A stretch of 64,000 nt of DNA, from positions 32,001 through 96,000 of IMG/VR virus record IMGVR_UViG_3300050343_000255; one strand, 5' to 3'. The position numbers were made by a program, and so were the translations under genes. The stretch's first letter is position 1. Every line of letters starts with the position of its first letter. The notes beneath the pieces were generated by a model that was not told where the DNA came from, did not search any database, and saw nothing but the letters and a program-made list of their open reading frames with translations. Below, piece after piece: positions 1,887 through 17,030 of this stretch. This stretch comes from a virus.

Positions 1887-3308
1887 ATGGAAAAAAATCA
1901 AGTCATTGCTCGCACTGGTCGAGTACAAAATTGGATTGACGATCCTACAAGTCGCCTGCCCGTCAGCTGCACAGTTTTTGTGGTGGATGACAGCATGGAG
2001 GGACCTAACGGAATCGAGGCTAGCTGGCGCTACGTGAGTCACGGTTACGTTTTGGAGCAGGGGTTGCTGTACACCTATCCAATCTCCGTCCTGCAGGACA
2101 TGACAATGGCAAAGGACTAGTAAGTTCCGGGCCATGTTCGTTTGGCAAAATTTATAGTTGTCTGAACGAGCAGTTACGTAGAGGTGGTGTATACAAAAAC
2201 GGTGCCGTAGTGCTGCACCTCGATTTAAACCACAAGGATATTCTTGAGTTTGTCAATATGCCTAGGCATGAAATTCCTTGGGCAAAACGTTGCGTCAACT
2301 TGTCCAACGTAATGTGGGATATGGCAATCCCTGCAGTCAAGGATGCAATCATCAAAGGTATTGCTCGTGGTGACATTTGGCTAGCCAAGATTAGGCATGA
2401 TCAACACGGTGAAAGAATTTTCGCGAACGTTTGCCTTGAAGTCTTCCTGCGTAGCAGGGGTACTTGTCTCTTGGAGCACATAAATTTGGGTGCTTGTCGT
2501 GCTGAAGATTTACCTGCTGCATTTATTTGCGGCATGGAAGAACTAATTGATTTACATGGTAAAACTGGTGTTGAGAAAACTGGCGAGTATCTTTCTCAAG
2601 AAGAAGATCGCCAAGTCGGTTTGGGAATGCTTGGTCTCGCCAATTTGCTTGCGCTGGAAGGAGTTACGTATGCTCAATTCGGAGAAGCTTTAAACGAGCA
2701 TCTGTATCCCTTTAGGTGATTACATCGTGACTCCTGAAGCACGTAATATAGTTAAAGCACTTCAATTAGGAATTGATTCCGCTGCTGCTATTGCAAGTCG
2801 AGCCAATATGGATCGTTGCTTTGCTATTGCACCTACGGCGTCTTGTTCCTATCGCTACAAAGACAGAGCAGGCTATACAACTACCCCCGAACTTGCACCG
2901 CCAATCGGGCGTACAGTTGATAGGGACAGCTCTACATTCGGTGTCGAGACATTTGACTACGGTGATGTTGAAACAGCTGAATCTGTTGGGTGGGACACTT
3001 ACTACCGCGTAGTAAATGGCATCATGACAATGCTGTCAAACACTGGCCTCAACCATGGATATAGTTTCAACAGTTGGTCAGATGTAGTTCAATACGACGA
3101 TGCCTTCATTGAATCCTGGCTAAGTTCTCCGCAAACCTCTATGTATTATTCATTGCAGGTTATGCAGAACACTCAAGCAAAAGACGATGCTCTTGCTGCT
3201 TTAGATGGAAACTTCGGTGAGATGTTTGGATTCAATGATGATGATGCCGACGATGACATTTTAGATGTCTTTAACGACCCCGCATCCTGCGTAGGGTGCG
3301 CCGAGTAA
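1887..3308 (+). CDS. nrdA: ribonucleotide reductase alpha subunit (short cyanophage type; frameshifted near 2045 and 2710)
   Basis: RTGRVQ..LPVSCTVF, NVCLE active-site loop, TCLL, AIAPTASCS, C-terminal CVGCAE; split over three ORFs. Confidence 0.85.
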
Positions 3309-5138: not shown

Positions 5139-5798
5139 ATGAACTTTATCGCTGCAACGATTGAATTACGATCCTTCATTTCAGATCCAATCAATGCTTA
5201 TGGGCTTGACTATTGCGGGGCTAACGCTGTTGTGCCCGCTGGTAGTGGTGCTTCAGAGGTCCAGCTTCGAATTCTCTGCTACAACCGAGAAGGAGCCAAG
5301 CTATCTCTCTTCAAAGAATGGAAAGAAGGTACACGTGCATTGATCACAGGCAACATTGTCTTCTCAGATGATGTGACCAAACCTCTTGATCTCATCGTCA
5401 CAACGATTGAACCGTCAATCCCAGACAATGTGTATTGCAATCAAGTTGTACTTGGTAATGCATTCTTTGGATCAAATGAAATCAAAGATCGTAAGAACGA
5501 TCAAGTTGCTGTCAAAATTGGTACAACACTAGATAACTCAGAAATTGTTACATGGCTATTTCTTGAAACACATGAATCACGTCGCAAAAAACTTACAGAT
5601 CGAATCCGTAGCGGACGCCCTATCTGCGTTCAAGGCTATCTCCGCGAATATCGCAAAGACGGGAGTGACAGTCCTTATCGAGCTATCGTCGCTTCTGACT
5701 TCACTACTCGTAAGGATAAGGAGCGAACTCAACGGAATCCACAAACGAACGGTTCAGCGGCGGGTTACTCAGAGGTGGATCCGACGCCGGACTATTGA
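5139..5798 (+). CDS. putative ssDNA-binding protein (tandem OB folds)
   Basis: SSB-like pattern GRPICVQGYLRE..IVASDF, acidic tail EVDPTPDY; replication context. Confidence 0.5.
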   Translation: MNFIAATIELRSFISDPINAYGLDYCGANAVVPAGSGASEVQLRILCYNREGAKLSLFKEWKEGTRALITGNIVFSDDVTKPLDLIVTTIEPSIPDNVYCNQVVLGNAFFGSNEIKDRKNDQVAVKIGTTLDNSEIVTWLFLETHESRRKKLTDRIRSGRPICVQGYLREYRKDGSDSPYRAIVASDFTTRKDKERTQRNPQTNGSAAGYSEVDPTPDY

Positions 5799-5859
5799 TC
5801 GAAGCAAGCATCTCAAGTCAGGAAAACTTGGCTGGGATGCACCAGTTTATAAATAGCGT

Positions 5860-6129
5860 TTAGGCGTTTGGAGTGGGTCCACCCATCATTCCAAAATGCC
5901 CGAACGCTTTTTGAGCACCAAAAGCTTTTTCTAGCTCAGGAGACAAACCAAAATTATATGCCATTCCCTGGACTTTTCCTAATGATGGATAGTTATCTCC
6001 CACAACCATACCTGCAATACCACCTGACATATCTTTGCCTAACAAGCCAGGAATAACTCCTTGCGACATGTCTTTGCCAGTAATTGCACCAAGCAATCCA
6101 CCACTTAAAGCATCTGCAAATCGCATCAT
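5860..6129 (-). CDS. Gly-rich small protein, antisense to the replication operon
   Basis: Own TACAATAG -10 box at 6148-6155; composition like the 54-62 kb putative virion proteins. Confidence 0.55.
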   Translation of the reverse strand: MMRFADALSGGLLGAITGKDMSQGVIPGLLGKDMSGGIAGMVVGDNYPSLGKVQGMAYNFGLSPELEKAFGAQKAFGHFGMMGGPTPNA

Positions 6130-6189
6130 TAATTATCTCACATTTAACTATTGTAGTAACTATATTTGAAAGGTCGATATTAACTACAT

Positions 6190-6921
6190 ATGACCCTACA
6201 AGTATTGCCTCCTGAACTTCTAGAGGCACCTAAAGACAGAATTGAAACTAAAGAACCCCAACCATACTGGAAACCTAGCTCACTCAAAGATGGAGAAAGT
6301 GAAGAGTTCCGATTGCTCGGATGCTACGAAACAGGGCACGCCATCATGGGATGGCAATATGCATCCGAAGCACGAGGCAATGACGGTGAACTTAAGTTCA
6401 ACGGTTACGTTGTCACTCGTACTCACCCTGGTAGCCCTGACGACATTGCTCGTGAAACCGACTGGTCTAAGCCCGACCGACCAAAAATTGATGGCTCCTA
6501 CGTCAAGCCACGTCGGTTTTTAGCTTGGGTTGGTACTTCTGCTGCCCGCAGTCGTATGGAAGTTCTGTTCATCGAACAGAAATCCTTGCGTGACCAACTA
6601 ACTGAAATCTTGCAAGAGATTGAAGACTATACCTGGACTGATGAAGGCTTAGCTAATTTCTCAATCAAGATCACTCGCAAAGGTGCAGGTCTTGAAACCT
6701 CTTACAGCATTCTTCCTAAGGTTCGCAAAGTCCCTGAAAAGATTGCAAAAGAATGGGAAACAACACGAGATAGTATCTGGCTACCAAATTTCTTTGAAGG
6801 GAAAGATCCTTTTGAAGGAAAGCAAACTGATGAAAAAGGTATTCCAGCTGGTGGAGTAGATAAACGTGGAAGTACTGTGCTTCCAACAAAAGCAAAAACT
6901 AAAAAACAAGAAGAAATCTGA
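6190..6921 (+). CDS. putative ssDNA-binding/annealing protein
   Basis: LKDGES..FRLL and IKITRKGAGLETSY motifs resemble phage SSB families; next to the exonuclease. Confidence 0.5.
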   Translation: MTLQVLPPELLEAPKDRIETKEPQPYWKPSSLKDGESEEFRLLGCYETGHAIMGWQYASEARGNDGELKFNGYVVTRTHPGSPDDIARETDWSKPDRPKIDGSYVKPRRFLAWVGTSAARSRMEVLFIEQKSLRDQLTEILQEIEDYTWTDEGLANFSIKITRKGAGLETSYSILPKVRKVPEKIAKEWETTRDSIWLPNFFEGKDPFEGKQTDEKGIPAGGVDKRGSTVLPTKAKTKKQEEI

Positions 6922-6927
6922 ATTCTA

Positions 6928-7113
6928 ATGATCGAACTTAAAGTAGCTAAAAATGAATTGGGACTGTTTCAAGCTGATGCAGTTCTTACCTTGCCACCAT
7001 TGTGCATCTCATGCCAAAAAGCTGATCGAGATGATTTGGAGTATCAAATCCGAAATGATTTTCGTGAGCTAGTAGAAGAAATTGTACAAAAACAAATCAA
7101 AGACGAATTCTAA
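6928..7113 (+). CDS. hypothetical protein
   Basis: Coupled ORF. Confidence 0.55.
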   Translation: MIELKVAKNELGLFQADAVLTLPPLCISCQKADRDDLEYQIRNDFRELVEEIVQKQIKDEF

Positions 7114-7460
7114 TGACAAATTCAAATCTACAAAACCTGCCTCCTGAAATGCAGGCACGGTTAGCCGATATCCTTACACAAGCAAATGCTCTTGCTCCAA
7201 GCACTGCAGATAATACTGCTGTTAATAGTGTCGTACAAGCTAATCAAGTTCCTGCACGGGCTCCTTCCCTAATGGATCACACGATTGCTTTGCGCCAAGA
7301 AGTATCACAGCTGTCCCAACAAGTTTATGCAACTGGTCAAGTTGTAGAAGCAGTGGGTCAAGCTGTAGGAGAGTTATATCAACTCTTTCAAGCACAAACC
7401 GAAACTACAGATTACAGCTCAAATTATCAAACGCAACAAGGTGTAGATGGTGACTTCTGA
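7113..7460 (+). CDS. hypothetical coiled-coil protein
   Basis: Q/A-rich heptad pattern; coupled ORF. Confidence 0.6.
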   Translation: MTNSNLQNLPPEMQARLADILTQANALAPSTADNTAVNSVVQANQVPARAPSLMDHTIALRQEVSQLSQQVYATGQVVEAVGQAVGELYQLFQAQTETTDYSSNYQTQQGVDGDF

Positions 7461-8220
7461 TCTTCCATACAGAATACAAACTTCCGCCGGACATAGAAAG
7501 TATCTATGCTCCGGCATTTATATGCCGAGTGTAACTACGGTTCTCTCGGCTACTGAAAGCGAAAAGTCCAAAGCTGGTCTTCGCAACTGGCAAAAGAATA
7601 ATCCGGGTGCGCTAGAGGCAGCATCAACTCGCGGCTCGGCTATTCACTTAGGTTGTGAAAATTATCTCCGTGGTTTAGACCCAGGTGTTCCTGAAGATTA
7701 TCTAGATTTCTGGAATGGTATGTCTTCTTACCTTGATTGGTTTGATACAATTCATTGGTCGGAGCGTCCTTTACGTCCCGATTGGAACCATCTAAGAAGT
7801 GATGATAGAGAAGTCGCATTTGTTTGGAGTACGGAGCATAAATATGCTGGATGTCCTGACCTTATTGGTGAAATCGGTGGAGTACGAGTTATTGCTGACT
7901 TTAAAACTAGCAATGCTCCTTACTGCGCTTCTTTTCCTGATCGTGGAGATCGAATTGGATTCGGTGGTTACCGAAAATATACGAAGTGTGCGCAGCAAAT
8001 GGCTGCATACAGATATGCACTAAACGAAAGAACAGGTTTCCTTTGTGATGTTGCCCTAATTATTGTCTCAACACCTGAGACAACCCAAGGCATCTTCATT
8101 GATGGCGATCAACTTGCGTTGCACGAATCACGTTTCCTGAAACGTTGTCAACAATTCCATGAAATAGATAATGAAACTACGGATTGCAGTACACAAAAGT
8201 TGCAAGAACAAGCAGAGTAA
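7447..8220 (+). CDS. PD-(D/E)XK exonuclease
   Basis: PSVTTVL, RGSAIH, SER, AGCPDL, IADFKTS, QQMAAY motifs. Confidence 0.85.
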   Translation: MVTSDLPYRIQTSAGHRKYLCSGIYMPSVTTVLSATESEKSKAGLRNWQKNNPGALEAASTRGSAIHLGCENYLRGLDPGVPEDYLDFWNGMSSYLDWFDTIHWSERPLRPDWNHLRSDDREVAFVWSTEHKYAGCPDLIGEIGGVRVIADFKTSNAPYCASFPDRGDRIGFGGYRKYTKCAQQMAAYRYALNERTGFLCDVALIIVSTPETTQGIFIDGDQLALHESRFLKRCQQFHEIDNETTDCSTQKLQEQAE

Positions 8221-10417
8221 ACCTGCACGCGATTGGCAAAATATATTAGAAGATATTGATTGGTTACTAGGTTGGGTTCAAAACGGCTATGGATGGTGTG
8301 CCACACACTTCAAAGCTCGTCATCGCAAGGCTGATAACTCAGCTGGCTCCAACATGGTCGTCATTGACTTTGACGGAGACACAACCCTTGCCAGATTTTG
8401 GTCAAGTGATACTGCTCGTCAATGGTGTGTAGCGACTTATACATCAGCTAGTCATACAGAAAGTGAGCACAGGTTTAGAGCCTTGTTCCCGCTTGGCAAA
8501 GAGCTTCTATCTACTGCTGAGCACAAGGGTGCTTATTGGTTAATCGTCAATCGTTTACTTGCAGAGCTAGAGCTCACTGAGCTTGCTGATAACTGTGGGC
8601 AAAAACCTGAACGACTGTGGTTTGGTAATACCAATGCAGATATTCACAAGAATGCTGAGTATGAGCCTGTCCCAGAATTTCTCCTCAATGACATCGCATA
8701 TGACGAGTCTTCTAACTTTGTATCCTCGGATGTAACTGATATAGACATACAGCGTTGCCAATGGTTGCTAGAAAGCTTTCTGACACCGTCTGATGATGGT
8801 CAGTATGAAACTTACTATGTACCAGTCATGGCAGCTTGTGCAGGCATTGGTGAGCCTGTATTTGATGCTTGGGTTAACTGGGTATTAAAAGGCCATCACG
8901 GTGAAAAACCTGAAAATATACAACCATTTAAATGGCGAGGTCTCGGAAACTTTTCAGGTCCAACTACACTATATTCACTTGCTAAAAAGCAAGATGCAGA
9001 CTGGGCACACAAGCTGCCATCACATCTTAGGTTTGGTGCAGTAGGTGCAGCTGCGGGATATACAGAGTTTGATCCAGTACAAGATATTGATCAGATAGTC
9101 CAAGATCATTTACAAACAAGGAGTAGTAGCAAATCAATGAATAATTCAGATGAATCCATTGTTCCAGAACCTTTACCTGATTCAAACCAAGTCAAAAAGC
9201 GTGGTCGTCCCAAAAAGAATGACGATGACTTAGCCAAGCAACGTGAATCAGATGTTCAAAAGGTTAAAGAGATTCTTCTCAACCTACGAAAGAATGAACT
9301 CACAGGAGCGATTGAGTACACACAGCCAGGTGGTGAAGCTGTCTTTCTTCAAGGTCAAGACCTAGACCTTATGACTACCAAGCTTGCTTGTGAAAACGGT
9401 GTATTCATTCCTGAGCAGCGGATCAAGTCTGCAATTCAATATGCAGCAAATCAAAATAGGTATTGCCCGATCCGTACCTACTTAGATAAATGTGCTGATA
9501 CCGCTGAACCTCACCCTGACTGGGACAACATTGGTGAAATTTTCCTAGGCAACAAACACAACATCTCTACTACAGCAATGCAGCGCATGATGATTGGTGC
9601 TGTAGCTAGGGCATATGACCCAGGCTGCACCATGTCTTGGCTGCCAATCCTGGTAGGCCCTCAAGGTGCTGGTAAATCAATGTTCTCCAGAAGCCTTGTA
9701 CCTCCTGCACTGTTTTCTGAGATCACAACACCTTTAGATACGCTCATGCGTGAGCAATATCGATTGCACGTGGCATGGCTGCTAGAGCTACCAGAGATTG
9801 ATAACTACTTCAATACAAGAAACATTGAGAACTTCAAAAACCTTGTTACTACACGAGTAGATGAAGTGCGTTATCCATACGCATCTCTACCTAGCAAACT
9901 ACCTAGGCGCTTCGTATTTATTGGTACTACCAACCGAAATCAATTCTTGGTTGACAGCACAGGTAACCGTAGATTTGTTCCACTCGAACTTGGGGCTGGT
10001 TTCCAAATTCCATGGAAAGAGCTGTGCAATGTACGAGATAGTCTGTGGGCTGCTGCAGTAGCTGCATATCGCAATAATGAAGGCTATGAGTTTACAAGTG
10101 GTGAGATCGCTGCTATATATGAATACATCCAAGAGTTTGGTGATCCAGACCCTTGGTTAGATAAGATCGCATCCTATGTAGCTATCCGAGAGGAAGTAAC
10201 TGCAGCAGATGTTCTTACAAATGCTCTCGAATTAGATCCTCGTAATCAAGGTCGTAGAGAAGGCAGACGTGTAGCTGATGTTCTTCAATCAATGGGTTGG
10301 AGAAGACTAGTAACAAGCAGGAAAGATCCGGCAACGGGTAAGTCCAAGTCTGTACGTGTGTGGCAACGTCCTAAGAATGATCCTCTATTAGAAGATCACA
10401 TTCTTAATGACTTCTAA
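8171..10417 (+). CDS. primase-helicase (AEP/PrimPol N-terminus, PriCT-like region, VirE/VapE-type P-loop ATPase)
   Basis: VIDFD and TSASH AEP motifs; AT-hook KKRGRPKK; GPQGAGKS Walker A; GTTN...DSTGNRRF. Confidence 0.9.
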   Translation: MKLRIAVHKSCKNKQSKPARDWQNILEDIDWLLGWVQNGYGWCATHFKARHRKADNSAGSNMVVIDFDGDTTLARFWSSDTARQWCVATYTSASHTESEHRFRALFPLGKELLSTAEHKGAYWLIVNRLLAELELTELADNCGQKPERLWFGNTNADIHKNAEYEPVPEFLLNDIAYDESSNFVSSDVTDIDIQRCQWLLESFLTPSDDGQYETYYVPVMAACAGIGEPVFDAWVNWVLKGHHGEKPENIQPFKWRGLGNFSGPTTLYSLAKKQDADWAHKLPSHLRFGAVGAAAGYTEFDPVQDIDQIVQDHLQTRSSSKSMNNSDESIVPEPLPDSNQVKKRGRPKKNDDDLAKQRESDVQKVKEILLNLRKNELTGAIEYTQPGGEAVFLQGQDLDLMTTKLACENGVFIPEQRIKSAIQYAANQNRYCPIRTYLDKCADTAEPHPDWDNIGEIFLGNKHNISTTAMQRMMIGAVARAYDPGCTMSWLPILVGPQGAGKSMFSRSLVPPALFSEITTPLDTLMREQYRLHVAWLLELPEIDNYFNTRNIENFKNLVTTRVDEVRYPYASLPSKLPRRFVFIGTTNRNQFLVDSTGNRRFVPLELGAGFQIPWKELCNVRDSLWAAAVAAYRNNEGYEFTSGEIAAIYEYIQEFGDPDPWLDKIASYVAIREEVTAADVLTNALELDPRNQGRREGRRVADVLQSMGWRRLVTSRKDPATGKSKSVRVWQRPKNDPLLEDHILNDF

Positions 10418-10455
10418 CTACACTTTAATTAAGTAAATACATATTTTTAAGTTAA

Positions 10456-10692
10456 ATGAAATCCACAGATATCAAGATTGGTCAACGAGTATTTGTTGCG
10501 CCACATAATCGAATTGCATTAGTCGTAGGAAAGCCAGAGTATTACACTCCTCGTGCTCGTCTCGTTCGGATCAAGTTTGAAAATAGTACTAGGTTTGAAT
10601 ACAAACTCAACCACCAACTAGACCTACTGCCTACTGAGTACCAATACAAAGCACATGGTGGTAGTCACGTAAAGCCTGCTGGTGATTTTTGA
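10456..10692 (+). CDS. hypothetical protein (possible SH3/KOW-like barrel)
   Basis: IKIGQRVFV start; clean ORF. Confidence 0.55.
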   Translation: MKSTDIKIGQRVFVAPHNRIALVVGKPEYYTPRARLVRIKFENSTRFEYKLNHQLDLLPTEYQYKAHGGSHVKPAGDF

Positions 10693-11492
10693 TGCCTGAA
10701 TCACAGCCCAGTAAAAAAGTAGGTGGGCACACTTACGGTCGAAGAAATTTAAACATGTCTAATACCGCAGAAGAGGGAGCTCTCTGTCTCTATAGCGGTC
10801 ACTCCATAGGCAGGTTTAGCTCTTCTTCTATGCGCTATGACAGTCACCAAGCTTGTGTGCGCTGTGTAGCTGCTGCAAGAGAAGGGCGCATGTCTTTCAA
10901 TATTGATCGGCTTCTCAAAAAAGAACGTAAGCGTGCACTGAAATTCTGGTCAAAAGTTGATATTGGTCAACCTGATGACTGCTGGGAATGGCTTGGCTAT
11001 AGGTGCAAAACAAATGGCATGCCTCAATTTCCATGGAGGCGTCCAGGAATTAGTACCAGTACACAGCACCACCCACAAAGAGTTGCTATGTGGTTTACCT
11101 GGGGAGACCTTGGCTATACCGGAGTCAAGTCAACGTGTGGGAACAAGTACTGCTGTAACCCATTTCATCTTATACCCCAAAAGATTGGGGTTTTTGTTGA
11201 CTGCGATTCCTATCTAGAAAGTTTTGAGTTGGCTTGTGAACTTCACACCTTAAAGCAGCAAATTGCGGAATACAATTTAGAAGAAGCAATGAAAGAACAA
11301 GAGAAACTAATTAGTCAACAAGAACTTGAAGACCGATCAAATCTATTGTTCGAACCTGATTCAAATTTCTCAGACAGGTTCCAAGCTGTTGTGGAAGATA
11401 TGTTGAGTGGGAGACACCCAAGTCAACAAATCAAAATCCTAATAGTCTTTTTCAAGATGACGAGGAAAATACCACAGAAAACTTTTAATTAA
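10689..11492 (+). CDS. His-Me/HNH endonuclease-like protein, catalytic His absent
   Basis: FWSKVD..CWEWLG..HPQRVA..VKSTCGNKYCCNPFHL. Confidence 0.7.
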   Translation: MMPESQPSKKVGGHTYGRRNLNMSNTAEEGALCLYSGHSIGRFSSSSMRYDSHQACVRCVAAAREGRMSFNIDRLLKKERKRALKFWSKVDIGQPDDCWEWLGYRCKTNGMPQFPWRRPGISTSTQHHPQRVAMWFTWGDLGYTGVKSTCGNKYCCNPFHLIPQKIGVFVDCDSYLESFELACELHTLKQQIAEYNLEEAMKEQEKLISQQELEDRSNLLFEPDSNFSDRFQAVVEDMLSGRHPSQQIKILIVFFKMTRKIPQKTFN

Positions 11493-11520
11493 TCTATCCT
11501 TAGTAAAGAGTCATAAGAAT

Positions 11521-11943
11521 ATGTCAAGACGAAGCGATCTTATTCAACAACTAATTTCATCCAAGAAATTTGGTCCTGAAAAGAAACAAGAGCAGGAGTT
11601 CCTCATGGCTACTGCAGAGTTGATTCTTTCTGACCTGATTAATATTGCACTTACTGGTGTTGAAAAAAGGGGAACTGGCTCATTAGTCATCAACCTTATG
11701 AATGACTCTACGACGTTCATGTGGCCTGAATCAATTGAGTTTGATTTGAAAACAGCTGAGCGAGAAGAAGACGAGGATATCGTTGACTTTCTACGTGATC
11801 TGCTTGAAGAAATCGAAACCAATGACTGGTCAAAAAATGTATTAATAACATTAATTAGCGATGCTGGAACAAGAACATTTGCAGTCGAAGCAGGTCGGTG
11901 CCAAGAGGGCCTTAGAGCGCTCGCAGAAGAATTTATCGGATAA
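11521..11943 (+). CDS. acidic hypothetical protein
   Basis: Clean ORF in operon. Confidence 0.65.
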   Translation: MSRRSDLIQQLISSKKFGPEKKQEQEFLMATAELILSDLINIALTGVEKRGTGSLVINLMNDSTTFMWPESIEFDLKTAEREEDEDIVDFLRDLLEEIETNDWSKNVLITLISDAGTRTFAVEAGRCQEGLRALAEEFIG

Positions 11944-12529
11944 GCTTGCCGCCAAAGGTCTAAAGCTACCGTTATATCCGACACCTCAGATCATTGATCG
12001 AGCTCGTGCTGTCATGGGCAGTATCGACTTTGATCCAACTTCAGATCCTGTTCAACAGGTTCTTGTTGATGCAACATCCGTACCAAGCATTGAAGTCAAT
12101 CCTTTGCAGGAGCATTGGCACGGAAACGTATGGGTAGCACCTAAAGGAGCTGTACGTGATTGCCGGATTTGGCTTAATAAAACACTGAGTGAATATCGCA
12201 ATGGATATATTAATAGTTTTGTTTTATTCAGCAGTGCTTCAGAATTACTACGGGCTGCACCTGTTGTATGGGATTATCCAATCTGTATTCCGTTTAAACG
12301 GGTAAAGCAACTGCGTGCCACAGCTACTGGCTTTGAGCCAGTTTCTCCTTCTACTTGGAACCTAATCATATATGGTCCACCAATTAATCAAGCGCTAACT
12401 GATATTGACAAAGTCTCTCTGTTTTACGACAGCTTTAGAGACCTTGGTCGTGTCATCTATAGTGAATATGCAGGAGATGGTTGGAATAAAGATCTTGAGT
12501 ACTACGAAGAAAACAAAGGTAGTATTTGA
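11861..12529 (+). CDS. phage N6-adenine methyltransferase-like protein, catalytic NPP(Y/F) absent
   Basis: YPTPQII..ARAVMGSIDFDPTS..WHGNVWVAP. Confidence 0.65.
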   Translation: MLEQEHLQSKQVGAKRALERSQKNLSDKLAAKGLKLPLYPTPQIIDRARAVMGSIDFDPTSDPVQQVLVDATSVPSIEVNPLQEHWHGNVWVAPKGAVRDCRIWLNKTLSEYRNGYINSFVLFSSASELLRAAPVVWDYPICIPFKRVKQLRATATGFEPVSPSTWNLIIYGPPINQALTDIDKVSLFYDSFRDLGRVIYSEYAGDGWNKDLEYYEENKGSI

Positions 12530-12942
12530 TGTCAAAACATATTGCACCGGACTGTCTGTTAACTCTTCCTTCTAACGATCGGGTTCATCCTTGTCGTTTG
12601 ATTTTAAAAGATGGCACACTAATGTGGAAACATGCACTCTTCTATGAAGATAGTCTTGCATGTATCCCAAAATCCGTTGCACATGAGAGGCACATAATAA
12701 AAACTGCTCAGCGCCTAGAGGAACTGAACAGTTGGATATCACAAGGATTAGAGCCTTGGAACTCTTTAACTATCAAAGGGTGGTATCAGCCTTTCAATCC
12801 TGAACTAAGTGAAGGTATATCTGTATGCTTTACACACAGTTCACATGAGCTTGATTTTACGTTTGAGAATTTATTGCCACACATCCAAGATCATGAGAAG
12901 CTTGAACTAAGAAAAAATTATCTATTCTTTCAACGCTGCTGA
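12526..12942 (+). CDS. degenerate peptidase M15-like protein
   Basis: Pattern GTLMWKHA..IP..HIIKTAQRLE..TIKGWYQP..EGISVCF recalls cyanobacterial M15 peptidases without the Zn ligands. Confidence 0.45.
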   Translation: MMSKHIAPDCLLTLPSNDRVHPCRLILKDGTLMWKHALFYEDSLACIPKSVAHERHIIKTAQRLEELNSWISQGLEPWNSLTIKGWYQPFNPELSEGISVCFTHSSHELDFTFENLLPHIQDHEKLELRKNYLFFQRC

Positions 12943-12948
12943 CAACAA

Positions 12949-12967
12949 GGCCGCATATCTGCGGCTT
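12949..12967. terminator. hairpin between convergent genes
   Basis: GCCGCA-TATC-TGCGGC stem between stop codons at 12942 and 12967. Confidence 0.5.
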
Positions 12968-13284
12968 TAATAGTTTAACGAATCAATCAACCTAGTAAGA
13001 TACCATTGTGCTTTTTCAGCATCTTCTTTACTGTTTGACTTATGCCACATACGCAATAAATACTTCAAGACTTGCGCTTGCAAAAATCCTTGCTTACAGC
13101 TCGGAGCTTTATCAATTGCATCTTCAATTACTTCAATTGCTTCATGGCGTCCTGCCGTGTAATGAGCAGGGCTATTTACCATGTCAGTTGTAACGGGCTC
13201 TGTATATTCCCAAGTACTGAACTTGCTATTACTAAACCCAGAAACATAATCACCGTTGCTAAAAAAGCTATTCTTTTCGTTCAT
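12967..13284 (-). CDS. DUF3310 family protein
   Basis: DMVNSPAHY..EAIEVIE..KYLLRMWHK..EDAEKAQWYL. Confidence 0.85.
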   Translation of the reverse strand: MNEKNSFFSNGDYVSGFSNSKFSTWEYTEPVTTDMVNSPAHYTAGRHEAIEVIEDAIDKAPSCKQGFLQAQVLKYLLRMWHKSNSKEDAEKAQWYLTRLIDSLNY

Positions 13285-13342
13285 GAGTTTGTCTCGCGTA
13301 TTGATTACTCCTTACTTAATATAGGAACTGGAATCATATATT

Positions 13343-13909
13343 GTGGATATGCCGAGCCCTAAAGGTGACCCGACTTACATCAAAAATAAAGAACGATTCT
13401 ACATGAACGTTGCAAAGGCAATTAGCCAAGCATCAACACATCCAAAATGTCCAGGTGGATGTATTATTGTTCGTGATAGAGAGATTATTGGAGATGGTAG
13501 AAGCATACTGACGGATAGCATGGTTGAAATCGATTGCATTTCATATGCAGTCGCAGCTGCAGCCAAGGCAGGAACTCCTGCCATTGGTGGTGTGATCTAT
13601 ACAACAAGATATCCATTTTCAACTTCTGTGTTTCAAGCACACATGATGGGTATCAAAAAGATTGTTCTACTTGCCCATGACTGGGAACCGTATTACAAAG
13701 AAGAGTTCAGACGTTCTGCACGTCTAGCTCGTGAATTGAACATTGCTATTGAGCCAATGTTTGAAGACGAAGACCCAAGATTTACTAAGAATTCAAATGA
13801 CAGAGATATTGACGAAACTCTCTTCCCGGAAGCAAACCCGTTTGCGCCAGATGAATATGATCCAAACAATGCAACACATACCTTCGATGAAAACACAACT
13901 CCTATTTGA
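13343..13909 (+). CDS. dCMP deaminase-like protein, Zn ligands absent
   Basis: YMNVAKAISQAS..GCIIVRD..IIGDG..IYTTRYP..GIKKIV scaffold; HAE and PCxxC replaced. Confidence 0.7.
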   Translation: MDMPSPKGDPTYIKNKERFYMNVAKAISQASTHPKCPGGCIIVRDREIIGDGRSILTDSMVEIDCISYAVAAAAKAGTPAIGGVIYTTRYPFSTSVFQAHMMGIKKIVLLAHDWEPYYKEEFRRSARLARELNIAIEPMFEDEDPRFTKNSNDRDIDETLFPEANPFAPDEYDPNNATHTFDENTTPI

Positions 13910-14411
13910 CCTTGAATCCACAGGCTTACTTCGACGTGGCTCCACAATTCACTGCATGGTTATGCGTGATGCTGTTGATAGCAGCACTCATGTCTTTGAT
14001 CACAAGCCTGAACGTGCATTGATTCAAGGCATCAAACAACTAGAAGATGCAGATGTAATCATCGGGCACAACATTATTGGATACGATATCCCATTGCTCA
14101 AAGAGCAGTATCCAGACTTTGAACCTAAGGGTCAAGCAATGGATACCCTTGTGCTTAGTCGTTTGTTCTATCCACACATCATGGATAGAGATCACGAACG
14201 TCGTCCACTTGGCATGCCTCAACGTTTGTATGGCAGGCACTCACTGGAAGCGTGGGGTTACAGGTTGAAGTGCTTCAAAGGTGACTTTGGTAAGCATGAT
14301 GGCAACTGGGCTGTCTATACACCTGAAATGCTGGATTACTGCATCCAAGACACCGAGGTCACCCTCAAACTATGGCAACTTATGCAACGGAGAATGAACG
14401 ACTATGCCTGA
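13887..14411 (+). CDS. DNA polymerase A 3'-5' exonuclease domain (stand-alone)
   Basis: ExoI FDLES, ExoII GHNIIGYD, DTLVLSRL, HSLEAWG, ExoIII YCIQD; likely ATG at 13887. Confidence 0.9.
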   Translation: MKTQLLFDLESTGLLRRGSTIHCMVMRDAVDSSTHVFDHKPERALIQGIKQLEDADVIIGHNIIGYDIPLLKEQYPDFEPKGQAMDTLVLSRLFYPHIMDRDHERRPLGMPQRLYGRHSLEAWGYRLKCFKGDFGKHDGNWAVYTPEMLDYCIQDTEVTLKLWQLMQRRMNDYA

Positions 14412-14661
14412 TAAAAATGCACCACTAACTTCTGAAGAAATTACAGAAGCAGCAGATATCTTTTTTCCGCTCTTTAATATTGTCGATGAGCGTATGCCTG
14501 AAACAGCATCTACAGAAGATACGTTGAAAGTTATGGAAAACATTGCTAAGTTGGCACAGAAGGAACGAATTAAAAAACGAGAAGAAGCTGTAAAGCTTAA
14601 GTTCGGATTTAATAAAACTACTGATTCAGATGAGGATACTGTCAAAGATGAAAGTGATTGA
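14404..14661 (+). CDS. acidic hypothetical protein between the PolA exonuclease and polymerase genes
   Basis: Overlaps both neighbours; 85 aa. Confidence 0.65.
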   Translation: MPDKNAPLTSEEITEAADIFFPLFNIVDERMPETASTEDTLKVMENIAKLAQKERIKKREEAVKLKFGFNKTTDSDEDTVKDESD

Positions 14662-15955
14662 TTCTGTCAAACTTGAAATGCGTATGGCCAGCATTATGGC
14701 CCAACAGGAAGCAAGCGGATTCCGTTTCGATCTAACCGCAGCTGAGCGAGTTCGTGGTGAGTTTGAACAAGAGATGTCTGATCTACAAGGTCAAATTTCT
14801 AAACGTTTTATTTATGTTCCTGGCAAGGTCTACACACCTAAGCGTTCAAATAAAACCAAGGGTTTTTTCGCTGGTGCTCCGATGACAAAGCTGCTCGACT
14901 TCAATGCAACGAGCCGTCAGCATATTGCGTGGGCTCTACAGAACTTCAGCAAAGCCAGGTTTATCAAGGTTACTGAGACCGGTAAGCCTAAAGTTGATGA
15001 AGCAACTCTGTCTGAGCTGCGAGATACCGCACTGCAGCAAGGGAATACCAAGCTGCATGAGGAGTGTGAGATGTTTATCCGCCTGCTGACTTTGCAGAAG
15101 TGGATGGGACAGTTGTCGGAAGGATCTAACTCATGGTTCAACACCATTGAGGATGACGGATGCATCCACCACAGCTGTTCACTGGCAACGATCAGCGGTA
15201 GAAATGCGCATCGGGGTCCCAACTTGGGGCAGGTCGTAAGTGCACCATGGGCACGTCAGCTATTCATTCCACACCCTGGCATGGTCATGGTGGGGGCTGA
15301 CTTAGAAGGACTCGAACTTCGGGCGCTTGGGCACTACCTAGCCGTCTTCGATGAGGGCGCTTTTGCTGATGTTGTGGTCAACGGTGACATTCATACGCAG
15401 AATGCAGAGCGAGTTGGATGTACCAGATCTGAGGTCAAGTCGCTGGTCTATGGGTTCATTTATGGGGCTGGCGATGTGAAGCTGGGTCATATTTTGCATC
15501 CCGAACTTAGTGACGCTCAGAAGAAATCTCTTGGCACAGAACTACGACGTAAGTTTCTTGATGCGATCCCTGGTCTAGAACCCCTGGTTGATGCAGTCAA
15601 AGCAAAAGTTCGTAGTGCTGGTCAGCTCAAAGCACTAGATGGTCGTCCAATCTTCTGCCGAGCAGAACACAGTTCACTCAACTTCCTGCTTCAGTCATGT
15701 GGTGCGATTTTGAGTAAGCGGTGGTGTGTCATCGGTCAAGACTTACTTGATCAAGCAGGGCTTGCCTATGACAACGACTACACCCGTTGTGCCTACGTCC
15801 ATGATGAAGTTCAACTGTCTGTTGTACCAGCAGAGGTAGACCGTGTCAAAGAGCTCCTAGTGGCTGCTGCTCCTCAAGCAGGGCGTTACTACAACTTCCG
15901 TGTTCCGATTACAGCTGCCGCTGATCACGGAGACAACTGGGCAGCTACCCACTAA
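14648..15955 (+). CDS. polA: DNA polymerase A polymerase domain (T7-like)
   Basis: Motif A DLEGLELR, motif B RSEVKSLVYGFIYG, motif C VHDE; likely ATG at 14648. Confidence 0.95.
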   Translation: MKVIDSVKLEMRMASIMAQQEASGFRFDLTAAERVRGEFEQEMSDLQGQISKRFIYVPGKVYTPKRSNKTKGFFAGAPMTKLLDFNATSRQHIAWALQNFSKARFIKVTETGKPKVDEATLSELRDTALQQGNTKLHEECEMFIRLLTLQKWMGQLSEGSNSWFNTIEDDGCIHHSCSLATISGRNAHRGPNLGQVVSAPWARQLFIPHPGMVMVGADLEGLELRALGHYLAVFDEGAFADVVVNGDIHTQNAERVGCTRSEVKSLVYGFIYGAGDVKLGHILHPELSDAQKKSLGTELRRKFLDAIPGLEPLVDAVKAKVRSAGQLKALDGRPIFCRAEHSSLNFLLQSCGAILSKRWCVIGQDLLDQAGLAYDNDYTRCAYVHDEVQLSVVPAEVDRVKELLVAAAPQAGRYYNFRVPITAAADHGDNWAATH

Positions 15956-16376: not shown

Positions 16377-17030
16377 ATGGCTGCTCCTTTGCTAAGTATA
16401 TTTCGTCCGGCAGGACAACGTTTATTAGATAATCTTTCTAATAATACTTTTATTGGAGGAACAATATTGGCTGCACAAGAAGCTATTCCTGCAGTCTTTG
16501 GGACCAAACGCACGGATACAAATATTGATCCAAAGATGACAACAGCTATTATTGAAGCTAAAAAATTAGCAGAAAAAAGTGGCAGAAAAAATGTAAAGTA
16601 TGAAGACTACAATAACTCAACTCCCGGAGGATTTGCCGCTGCCAGGACATTTGGTCAAATTGCAGACAATGAATTCAAACGAGACGACAAAGGAAATATT
16701 ACTGGAGTAGTTCAACGCTACGATACAAATAAATCACCTACACAAGCTTTGTCTGAATTTAATATTTCTAATCCAAGTACTTATTACAAACCTGTTGAAG
16801 CATTTCTATCTTCTAATCAAAATAAAGGTGTTACAACCCACGATATCAATTTTTCTTCACCTGTCACGATTGAATCTAATAAGCCACCCAAACCAGTATC
16901 ATACAAAGTTCAACAAGGAGATACACTTACTTCTATTGCAAATAGCATGGGTGTAAACGTAAGTGAGCTTGCTAAAAGAAACAATATTGCTAATGCAAAT
17001 TTAATTAATATTGGTCAAACAATTGTCTAA
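16377..17030 (+). CDS. LysM-domain protein
   Basis: C-terminal YKVQQGDTLTSIA..LAKRNNIANANLINIGQTI. Confidence 0.85.
   Translation: MAAPLLSIFRPAGQRLLDNLSNNTFIGGTILAAQEAIPAVFGTKRTDTNIDPKMTTAIIEAKKLAEKSGRKNVKYEDYNNSTPGGFAAARTFGQIADNEFKRDDKGNITGVVQRYDTNKSPTQALSEFNISNPSTYYKPVEAFLSSNQNKGVTTHDINFSSPVTIESNKPPKPVSYKVQQGDTLTSIANSMGVNVSELAKRNNIANANLINIGQTIV

Follow-up and report, generated by a model that had tools for sequence, protein, structure and literature searches.

What keeps four genes in the core replication operon of a phage when they hold the scaffolds of four unrelated enzymes but lack the residues with which those enzymes work? The question is raised by a 64,000-nucleotide stretch of viral DNA (hereafter the window), bases 32001–96000 of the IMG/VR record IMGVR_UViG_3300050343_000255, whose 106,357 bp are rated complete by CheckV. 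Four genes on the plus strand, between those for a primase-helicase and a DNA polymerase, encode a degenerate homologue of the HNH_3/His-Me nucleases (HNH267, 10689–11492), a protein with the class-I methyltransferase fold of the PF05869-related Dam superfamily (MT222, 11861–12529), one with the LAS/peptidase-M15A fold but no H..D..H zinc ligands (M15_138, 12529–12942, with the open reading frame (ORF) starting at 12526 or 12529) and one with the CDA fold, similar to RibD and dCMP deaminases (DEAM188, 13343–13909). An earlier note, made from the letters of the window, had proposed that they form a module repurposed for binding, either as decoys against host defence or as subunits of a replication complex. 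We consider it about an even chance that all four serve the replisome and the machinery that supplies deoxynucleoside triphosphates (dNTPs) as accessory proteins without catalytic activity.

Four folds and their missing residues

Orthologues were collected from 80 related marine viral contigs, recruited through the polymerase, and distinct sequences were compared. The canonical catalytic or zinc-binding residues, which the earlier note had found missing in the window, are absent from all 41–59 distinct orthologues in the 80 syntenic contigs. The four folds named there also held, with support from PHROG 826 for the nuclease, tblastn and VIA for the methyltransferase, VIA and BFVD for the peptidase and a RibD profile for the deaminase. 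These sequence and fold comparisons trace the four genes back to a nuclease (HNH_3), an adenine methyltransferase of the Dam type, a zinc peptidase (M15/LAS) and a zinc deaminase (CDA).

The best match of HNH267 was PHROG 826 ('HNH endonuclease', E 2.5e-11), with three more HNH PHROGs, and PF13392 was present in 29 of the 30 named clusters among its ESM-feature neighbours (score 0.92). The Pfam PF13392 model itself did not match, and comparison of the HNH267 profile with Protein Data Bank (PDB) sequences yielded only a coiled-coil match to plant NRC2a. The column of the catalytic His, the general base of '[DR]H.C.N..C.NP.HL', is occupied by S, T or P in all 41 clade sequences: where the HNH genes of StAB and Forrest read 'VRHTCDN..CVNPTHL', HNH267 has 'VK[ST]TCGNKYCCNPFHL'. 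The downstream metal-binding 'H..N' segment is deleted as well, so that 'LLGTHADN' of StAB finds no counterpart and HNH267 has 'IPQKIG'. Retained is the structural cluster 'C.N..C.NP.H', with C150, C155, C156, N157, P158 and H160 invariant (29 sequences), and to this scaffold are added a zinc-ribbon-like C-H-C-C segment at the N-terminus, a helical region and an acidic tail with F or Y as its last residue. Compared with contig L003, which is nearly identical, the window copy is missing one G near 11426, and its last 21 codons are shifted; read in the corrected frame, it ends ...DDEENTTENF, as in the clade, with the stop at 11486–11488. This 1-nt deletion may be an assembly error or a genuine variant, and in this one place the earlier note was right about indels.

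No protein of the module is better conserved than MT222 (69–99% identity). By tblastn it matched annotated phage Dam and methyltransferase genes (E 3e-8 to 1e-4), and its AlphaFold model, of middling confidence (predicted local distance difference test score, pLDDT, 65), retrieved CAPAM (Z 9.5), E. coli Dam (8.5), M.TaqI (8.1) and T4 Dam (7.8) in VIA, where nearly all of the top 50 were methyltransferases. The Pfam Dam model (PF05869) gave no match at E<1, no PHROG matched, and the profile found chance matches only among PDB sequences; at the level of sequence, homology to PF05869 Dam is established transitively only. Motif I is retained as 'IDFDPTS' (of the 'DxDPA[SC]' type), with D56, D58, P59 and T60 invariant. 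At motif IV, in column-for-column alignment with Vibrio phage Dam genes, [AS][PA]KG stands instead of NPPY in 52 of 52 sequences. The closest relatives of MT222 are degenerate too, with 'FPPN' in cyanophage S-EIV1, 'NHPF' in Alteromonas phage PT11-V22 and 'APTG' in P0140. A profile search of the whole library with MT222 returned 3,391 representatives that grade from canonical 'NPPY' Dam proteins (PF05869, phrog_111) through an 'NPPG' subfamily to degenerate forms. Most of the top 150 representatives belong to this large Dam-like subfamily with 'NPPG[GK]' (P0148–P0270), which falls below the Pfam Dam cut-off and carries the PHROG 111 label 'DNA methyltransferase'.

MT222 is flanked closely on both sides. 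Its start overlaps by 83 nt the plus-strand gene o140 (11521–11943; 140 aa), which has no match in Pfam, PHROG, NCBIfam or the ESM Atlas; NCBIfam has no name for any protein of the module. Its stop shares one base with the ATG of M15_138 (TGATG), an arrangement which indicates that the two are translationally coupled. An apparent o140–MT222 fusion in contig L027 was rejected as an artefact of an N in that contig.

The model of M15_138 (pLDDT 91) had as its best solved match in VIA the zinc DD-peptidase of S. albus (1lbu; Z 9.7, 107 aligned residues, root-mean-square deviation (rmsd) 6.3), followed at Z 3.8–6.3 by Hedgehog-N, VldE, DacB, Ply500, LysB4, VanX/Y and the T5 endolysin; the RB49 endolysin was also among the fold matches. 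The best viral match in BFVD was a 'Peptidase M15A' (template modelling score 0.68, rmsd 2.5 over 135 columns). Foldseek against the PDB was weak for both this model and that of MT222, and M15_138 had no Pfam or PHROG match and only chance matches of its profile to PDB sequences. Profile alignment by hhalign with the M15A peptidase of Microcystis phage LMM01, although weak, ran ungapped through SxHxxGxAxD. In this weak register L93, C/Y/T100 and F134/Q135 occupy the zinc-ligand positions in place of H, D and H, and among the clade sequences the first position is H in 1 of 57 and the second D in 0 of 57. A family search recovered close relatives only, with a Pfam domain in none of the 120 members listed (of 925).

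For DEAM188 the clade profile matched, in the PDB, the deaminase domain of RibD (1.7e-6) and dCMP deaminases (7.6e-4); Pfam PF00383 scored 22–23 bits, short of its 25-bit cut-off. HAE occurs in 0 of 59 sequences, with no zinc-binding His in any of three possible registers, and PCxxC is replaced by 'PFS[AT]S', both Cys being present in none of the 59. E62 is invariant, and only one of the registers places it opposite the catalytic Glu. DEAM188 is the sole CDA-fold gene of the 106-kb genome; a search of the whole genome turned up no further gene of the CDA, Dam, HNH_3 or M15_3 kind, and none of the four can therefore be the regulatory partner of an active phage paralogue.

Constraint, tails and the wider gene set

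Ratios of non-synonymous to synonymous substitution rates (dN/dS) were estimated by the pairwise Nei–Gojobori method (NG86) from pairs with dS of 0.2–1.5. The values for MT222 (0.042) and HNH267 (0.043) compare with 0.055 for the polymerase and 0.058 for the primase-helicase; DEAM188 gave 0.098, against 0.118 for the exonuclease, and M15_138, o140 and o78 gave 0.175, 0.178 and 0.188, respectively. The module genes are thus not decaying. The earlier note had proposed to look among orthologues for synteny, dN/dS below 1 and consistent loss of the catalytic residues, and a fixed order, ratios of 0.04–0.18 and uniform loss were found, with nothing in the clade to contradict it.

The gene order is primase-helicase, o78, HNH267, o140, MT222, M15_138, a DUF3310 gene in reverse orientation, DEAM188 and PolA, and it is identical in every related locus of sufficient length. 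The left flank is a primase-helicase of the VirE/D5 type (8171–10417, plus strand), whose C-terminus reads ...LNDF. Directly 5' of the HNH-like gene in all loci lies o78 (10456–10692, plus strand), which encodes 78 aa with the C-terminus ...KPxGDF. On the minus strand at 12967–13284, the DUF3310 gene (PF11753, E 1.7e-14; phrog_236, E 1e-23; a PHROG 'nucleotide kinase' family) is present in 78 of the 80 loci and reversed in nearly all. A split T7-like family A polymerase (PolA; 13743–15955, plus strand), made up of three ORFs, for an exonuclease, an 85-aa product and the polymerase itself, follows DEAM188, and genes for thioredoxin, MazG, ribonucleotide reductase and ThyX lie upstream of the module.

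Several of these proteins share a type of C-terminus. An acidic stretch followed by F or Y closes HNH267 in 30 of 40 orthologues, and o78 ends in F in 32 of 40. Termini of the form (D/E)x(F/Y) occur on 8 of the ~115 ORFs of the window; five are consecutive at 5139–10692, and HNH267 makes a sixth after frame correction. The run consists of the ORFs at 5139–5798 (...PDY), 6928–7113 (...DEF) and 7113–7460 (...GDF), the primase-helicase (...NDF), o78 (...GDF) and HNH267 (...ENF), and outside it (5139–11492) only 3 of ~106 window ORFs end in this way. The tail of DEAM188 is acidic and variable, but its last residue is I, L, V or E.

Two further viral clades were reached from P0140, a distant relative ~30% identical to MT222: L093–L102 and the high-GC (rich in guanine and cytosine) L103–L105. 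Their order is deaminase or deaminase-like, o78-like, HNH267-like, two or three unknown genes, ThyX, o140-like, MT-like, M15-like and PF18909, a dATP/dGTP (NTP) pyrophosphohydrolase, and the gene set recurs at ~30% identity. The trio of o140, methyltransferase-like and M15-like genes is also carried by a high-GC scaffold, L092, and o140 homologues stand directly 5' of the MT-like gene in L092 and L093–L105. A compact recurring unit of ThyX, o140-like, MT-like and M15-like genes is found at L092:344–3895, L093:4601–7706 and L103:4608–7172, followed by PF18909 in L092 and L093. The PF18909 neighbours had suggested a Z-genome, which was rejected for the window phage, as no PurZ was found. The claim that four pseudoenzymes stand side by side as a module needs to be widened accordingly: the cluster is real, but its members are not four independent items. 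They belong to a larger co-inherited set, new here, of o78 with the HNH gene, the o140–MT–M15 trio, the deaminase, ThyX and the NTP pyrophosphohydrolase.

Catalytic residues vary among these clades. The zinc site of the deaminase, lost in the window clade, is intact in L093/L097 (VHAE, TCSQC; PF00383, E 2.6e-19) and in L100, and is lost in L103 (LSAE, TDARS), where the deaminase-like protein shares 31% identity with the intact enzyme of L100 (E 3e-22). In the L103 gene (2035–2577, plus strand) and its counterparts in L104 and L105 the three zinc ligands were lost a second time, independently; the L103 gene has the same position, 5' of the o78-like and HNH-like genes. The HNH catalytic His is missing in the window clade and L093/L097 and present in L100 (KHLC) and L103 (DHIC). 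Motif IV of the methyltransferase is degenerate in the window clade, L093/L097, L100 and L103, that is, in all three clades. In the distant M15-like genes no H/D/H ligands were seen in a weak alignment with M15_138, whose columns were not inspected in detail. The degenerate state described in the earlier note is thus constant within the clade of the window, but in some lineages of the other clades the His of HNH and the zinc site of the deaminase survive. That the genes remain present while catalytic residues come and go suggests a selected role independent of catalysis.

Further observations concern the surroundings of the module and its origin. By tblastn, the 85-aa ORF between the exonuclease and polymerase ORFs of PolA (14404–14661) is matched in 60 of the 80 loci. 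Just 3' of the polymerase, at 16377–17030, lies a gene for a 217-aa protein that carries a LysM domain at its C-terminus; this may be the gene that really serves cell-wall binding or lysis in the region. Homology to the large subunit of ribonucleotide reductase is split over at least two adjacent ORFs (2210–2719 and 2727–3308), through an indel of the record or a true split. Three contigs of the clade, L089, L090 and L091, are binned in metagenome-assembled genomes labelled Rhodobacteraceae, 'bacterium TMED88' and Blastopirellula, placements that are probably mis-binning and no evidence of host. A profile scan of genome contigs returned mis-binned phage contigs and one distant scaffold only, and a Synechococcus WH8016 island was not found. 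Against isolated phages, the sole blastn match was 89 bp of the polymerase.

What the genes may be retained for

Of the two roles first proposed, subunits of a replication complex or decoys, the first receives support of an indirect kind from the synteny with primase-helicase and PolA, from the T7-like tails and from co-inheritance with ThyX, the deaminase and the NTP pyrophosphohydrolase. The four proteins would be retained for binding and not for catalysis, as accessory subunits of a T7-like replisome and of dNTP-supply enzymes. HNH267 together with o78 would probably act as a zinc-stabilised DNA-binding protein. Its acidic tail ending in F or Y could dock on the split PolA in the manner of T7 gp2.5 and gp4, whose acidic, Phe-terminated tails make contact with the polymerase at a basic patch (PMC12339929). 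Translational coupling and co-inheritance suggest that o140, MT222 and M15_138 act together, probably as one working unit, and DEAM188 probably has a zinc-independent structural or nucleotide-binding role.

A bolder form of this proposal is that the domesticated dead-enzyme module found in several clades (HNH, Dam, M15 and CDA, with o78 and o140) is a physical scaffold coupling thymidylate and dNTP synthesis, through ThyX, the deaminase, the NTP pyrophosphohydrolase and a gp1.7-like kinase, to the T7-like split-polymerase replisome. We regard it as speculative. If true, the scaffold would be a counterpart, built from pseudoenzymes, to the dNTP-synthetase complex of T4; its catalytic residues would have been lost repeatedly, with selection acting on the binding surfaces alone.

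Four observations weigh against a purely non-catalytic role within the replisome. MT222 retains motif I along with the invariant polar residues K95, E111, R113, E128, R131, D138, R147, K149, D183, R193 and D194, which would equally suit a retooled active site. DEAM188 may retain the catalytic Glu. The residue mapping of M15_138 depends on the weak hhalign register and fold matches, with no residue-level structural superposition. Finally, the acidic, aromatic-ending tails of the HNH protein and o78 are not retained in the distant clades.

A serious rival, which we rate below the non-catalytic reading, is that of retooled enzymes: some or all of the four, MT222 foremost and perhaps together with o140 and M15_138, would catalyse another reaction through non-canonical residues, for example a modification step dependent on S-adenosylmethionine or acting on nucleotides or DNA bases and tied to thymidylate metabolism. 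MT222 is constrained like the polymerase; it keeps 'DxDPxS' and shares the subfamily-specific invariant 'PICIPFKR' and 'YGPP' with distant relatives; its wider family shows a gradation from NPPY through 'NPPG' to degenerate forms; and the o140–MT–M15 trio stands beside ThyX and the NTP pyrophosphohydrolase in three clades. However, methyltransferase chemistry as known never dispenses with a pocket of the (D/N/S)PP(Y/F/W) type, and the M15-like and deaminase-like proteins have no conserved set of His, Asp or Cys at the metal site. Moreover, the catalytic state of the HNH and deaminase genes flips between clades while the genes persist, and neither PurZ nor any other known base-modification marker was found.

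That the dead enzymes serve as anti-defence decoys or sponges, mimicking host or phage enzymes and soaking up effectors, signalling nucleotides or inhibitors, is improbable. The nucleotide-binding folds of the deaminase and the methyltransferase could in principle sequester nucleotides, but genes that counter host defence are, as a rule, accessory, vary from phage to phage and evolve fast. These genes sit in the core replication operon in an order fixed across 80 loci, recur in clades of ~30% identity and have dN/dS as low as that of the polymerase, and the decoy proposal of the earlier note fits them poorly: in depth of conservation and in synteny they resemble core replication genes, not the variable genes of an arms race.

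About equally improbable is that the alignments mislead and that these are divergent ordinary enzymes keeping canonical chemistry with shifted residues: the similarity is remote, three of the four have no Pfam match above threshold and the HAE region of the deaminase can be aligned in three registers, but no register supplies the deaminase-helix His or the two Cys, HNH267 and MT222 align ungapped around the motifs with bona fide enzymes, and the M15 register is backed independently by hhalign and fold matches.

Whichever role is right, four unrelated enzyme folds stand without catalytic residues side by side in the core replication operon of a cyanophage, under constraint like that of the polymerase. 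The distant clades in which the residues are kept or lost offer a natural series on what a phage replisome needs beyond chemistry, and six conserved 'hypothetical' families gain testable roles. There is also a caution for annotation, as relatives of these proteins carry the labels 'methyltransferase' or 'HNH endonuclease' in deposited phage genomes.

Relation to known phages and pseudoenzymes

The region belongs to a conserved module for replication and nucleotide metabolism in a lineage of uncultured marine cyanophages with kinship to S-EIV1. Such a lineage with a split DNA polymerase, and with S-EIV1 as its nearest isolate, was described by Flores-Uribe et al. (bioRxiv 10.1101/325100) and is reported as widespread and of low abundance in the oceans. 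Marine metagenomic origin, a split T7-like PolA and S-EIV1 as the nearest isolate are common to both; the published genomes are ~86 kb, compared with 106 kb here, and this record may belong to that family. As far as consulted, that preprint does not describe the gene cluster. S-EIV1 itself has degenerate homologues of HNH267 ('RTC') and MT222 ('FPPN'), and the M15-like and deaminase-like profiles found nothing in it. There is ample work on pseudoenzymes in eukaryotes and animal viruses, as far as the consulted part of one review goes (PMC7605207), and our literature search found no comparable phage case of such a cluster.

Three of the four can be set beside an active family. HNH267 shares with the phage HNH_3/His-Me endonucleases (PF13392; PHROG 826) the scaffold 'CW.W.G ... 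RVA ... C.N..C.NP.HL', and the HNH gene of Corynebacterium phage StAB adjoins its DNA polymerase, just as HNH267 lies beside replication genes. Unlike these enzymes it has S or T for His, no 'H..N', a zinc-ribbon-like N-terminus and a long helical, acidic C-terminal half. With the T1-type Dam N6-adenine methyltransferases (PF05869; PHROG 111) MT222 has in common the class-I fold, 'IDxDPxS', 'W.G.V' before motif IV and 'C.P..R' after it; it differs in [AS]PKG for NPPY, an added N-terminal helix of 35 residues and the lack of a Pfam match. M15_138 resembles the M15A/LAS zinc peptidases (endolysins, 1lbu, the Hedgehog N-domain) in its fold, the 'WY.P' strand and the 'G' of SxHxxGxAxD, but is without the H, D and H ligands and lies in a replication operon instead of a lysis module.

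Closest in kind to DEAM188 is Tad3 (ADAT3), the inactive partner of Tad2 (PMC3239186) and likewise a CDA-fold protein retained without catalytic competence. Tad3, however, has a zinc site and an active paralogue as partner, whereas DEAM188 has none of the three zinc ligands and is the only CDA gene of the phage. For the replisome the nearest model is T7, with its single-stranded DNA-binding protein (SSB) gp2.5 and its gp4. Unlike in T7, the polymerase is split, HNH267 and o78 are not SSBs of the oligonucleotide/oligosaccharide-binding (OB) fold and docking would be read from the tail alone; as in T7, a family A polymerase of the same type is accompanied by acidic tails ending in F or Y, here on HNH267, o78 and the primase-helicase.

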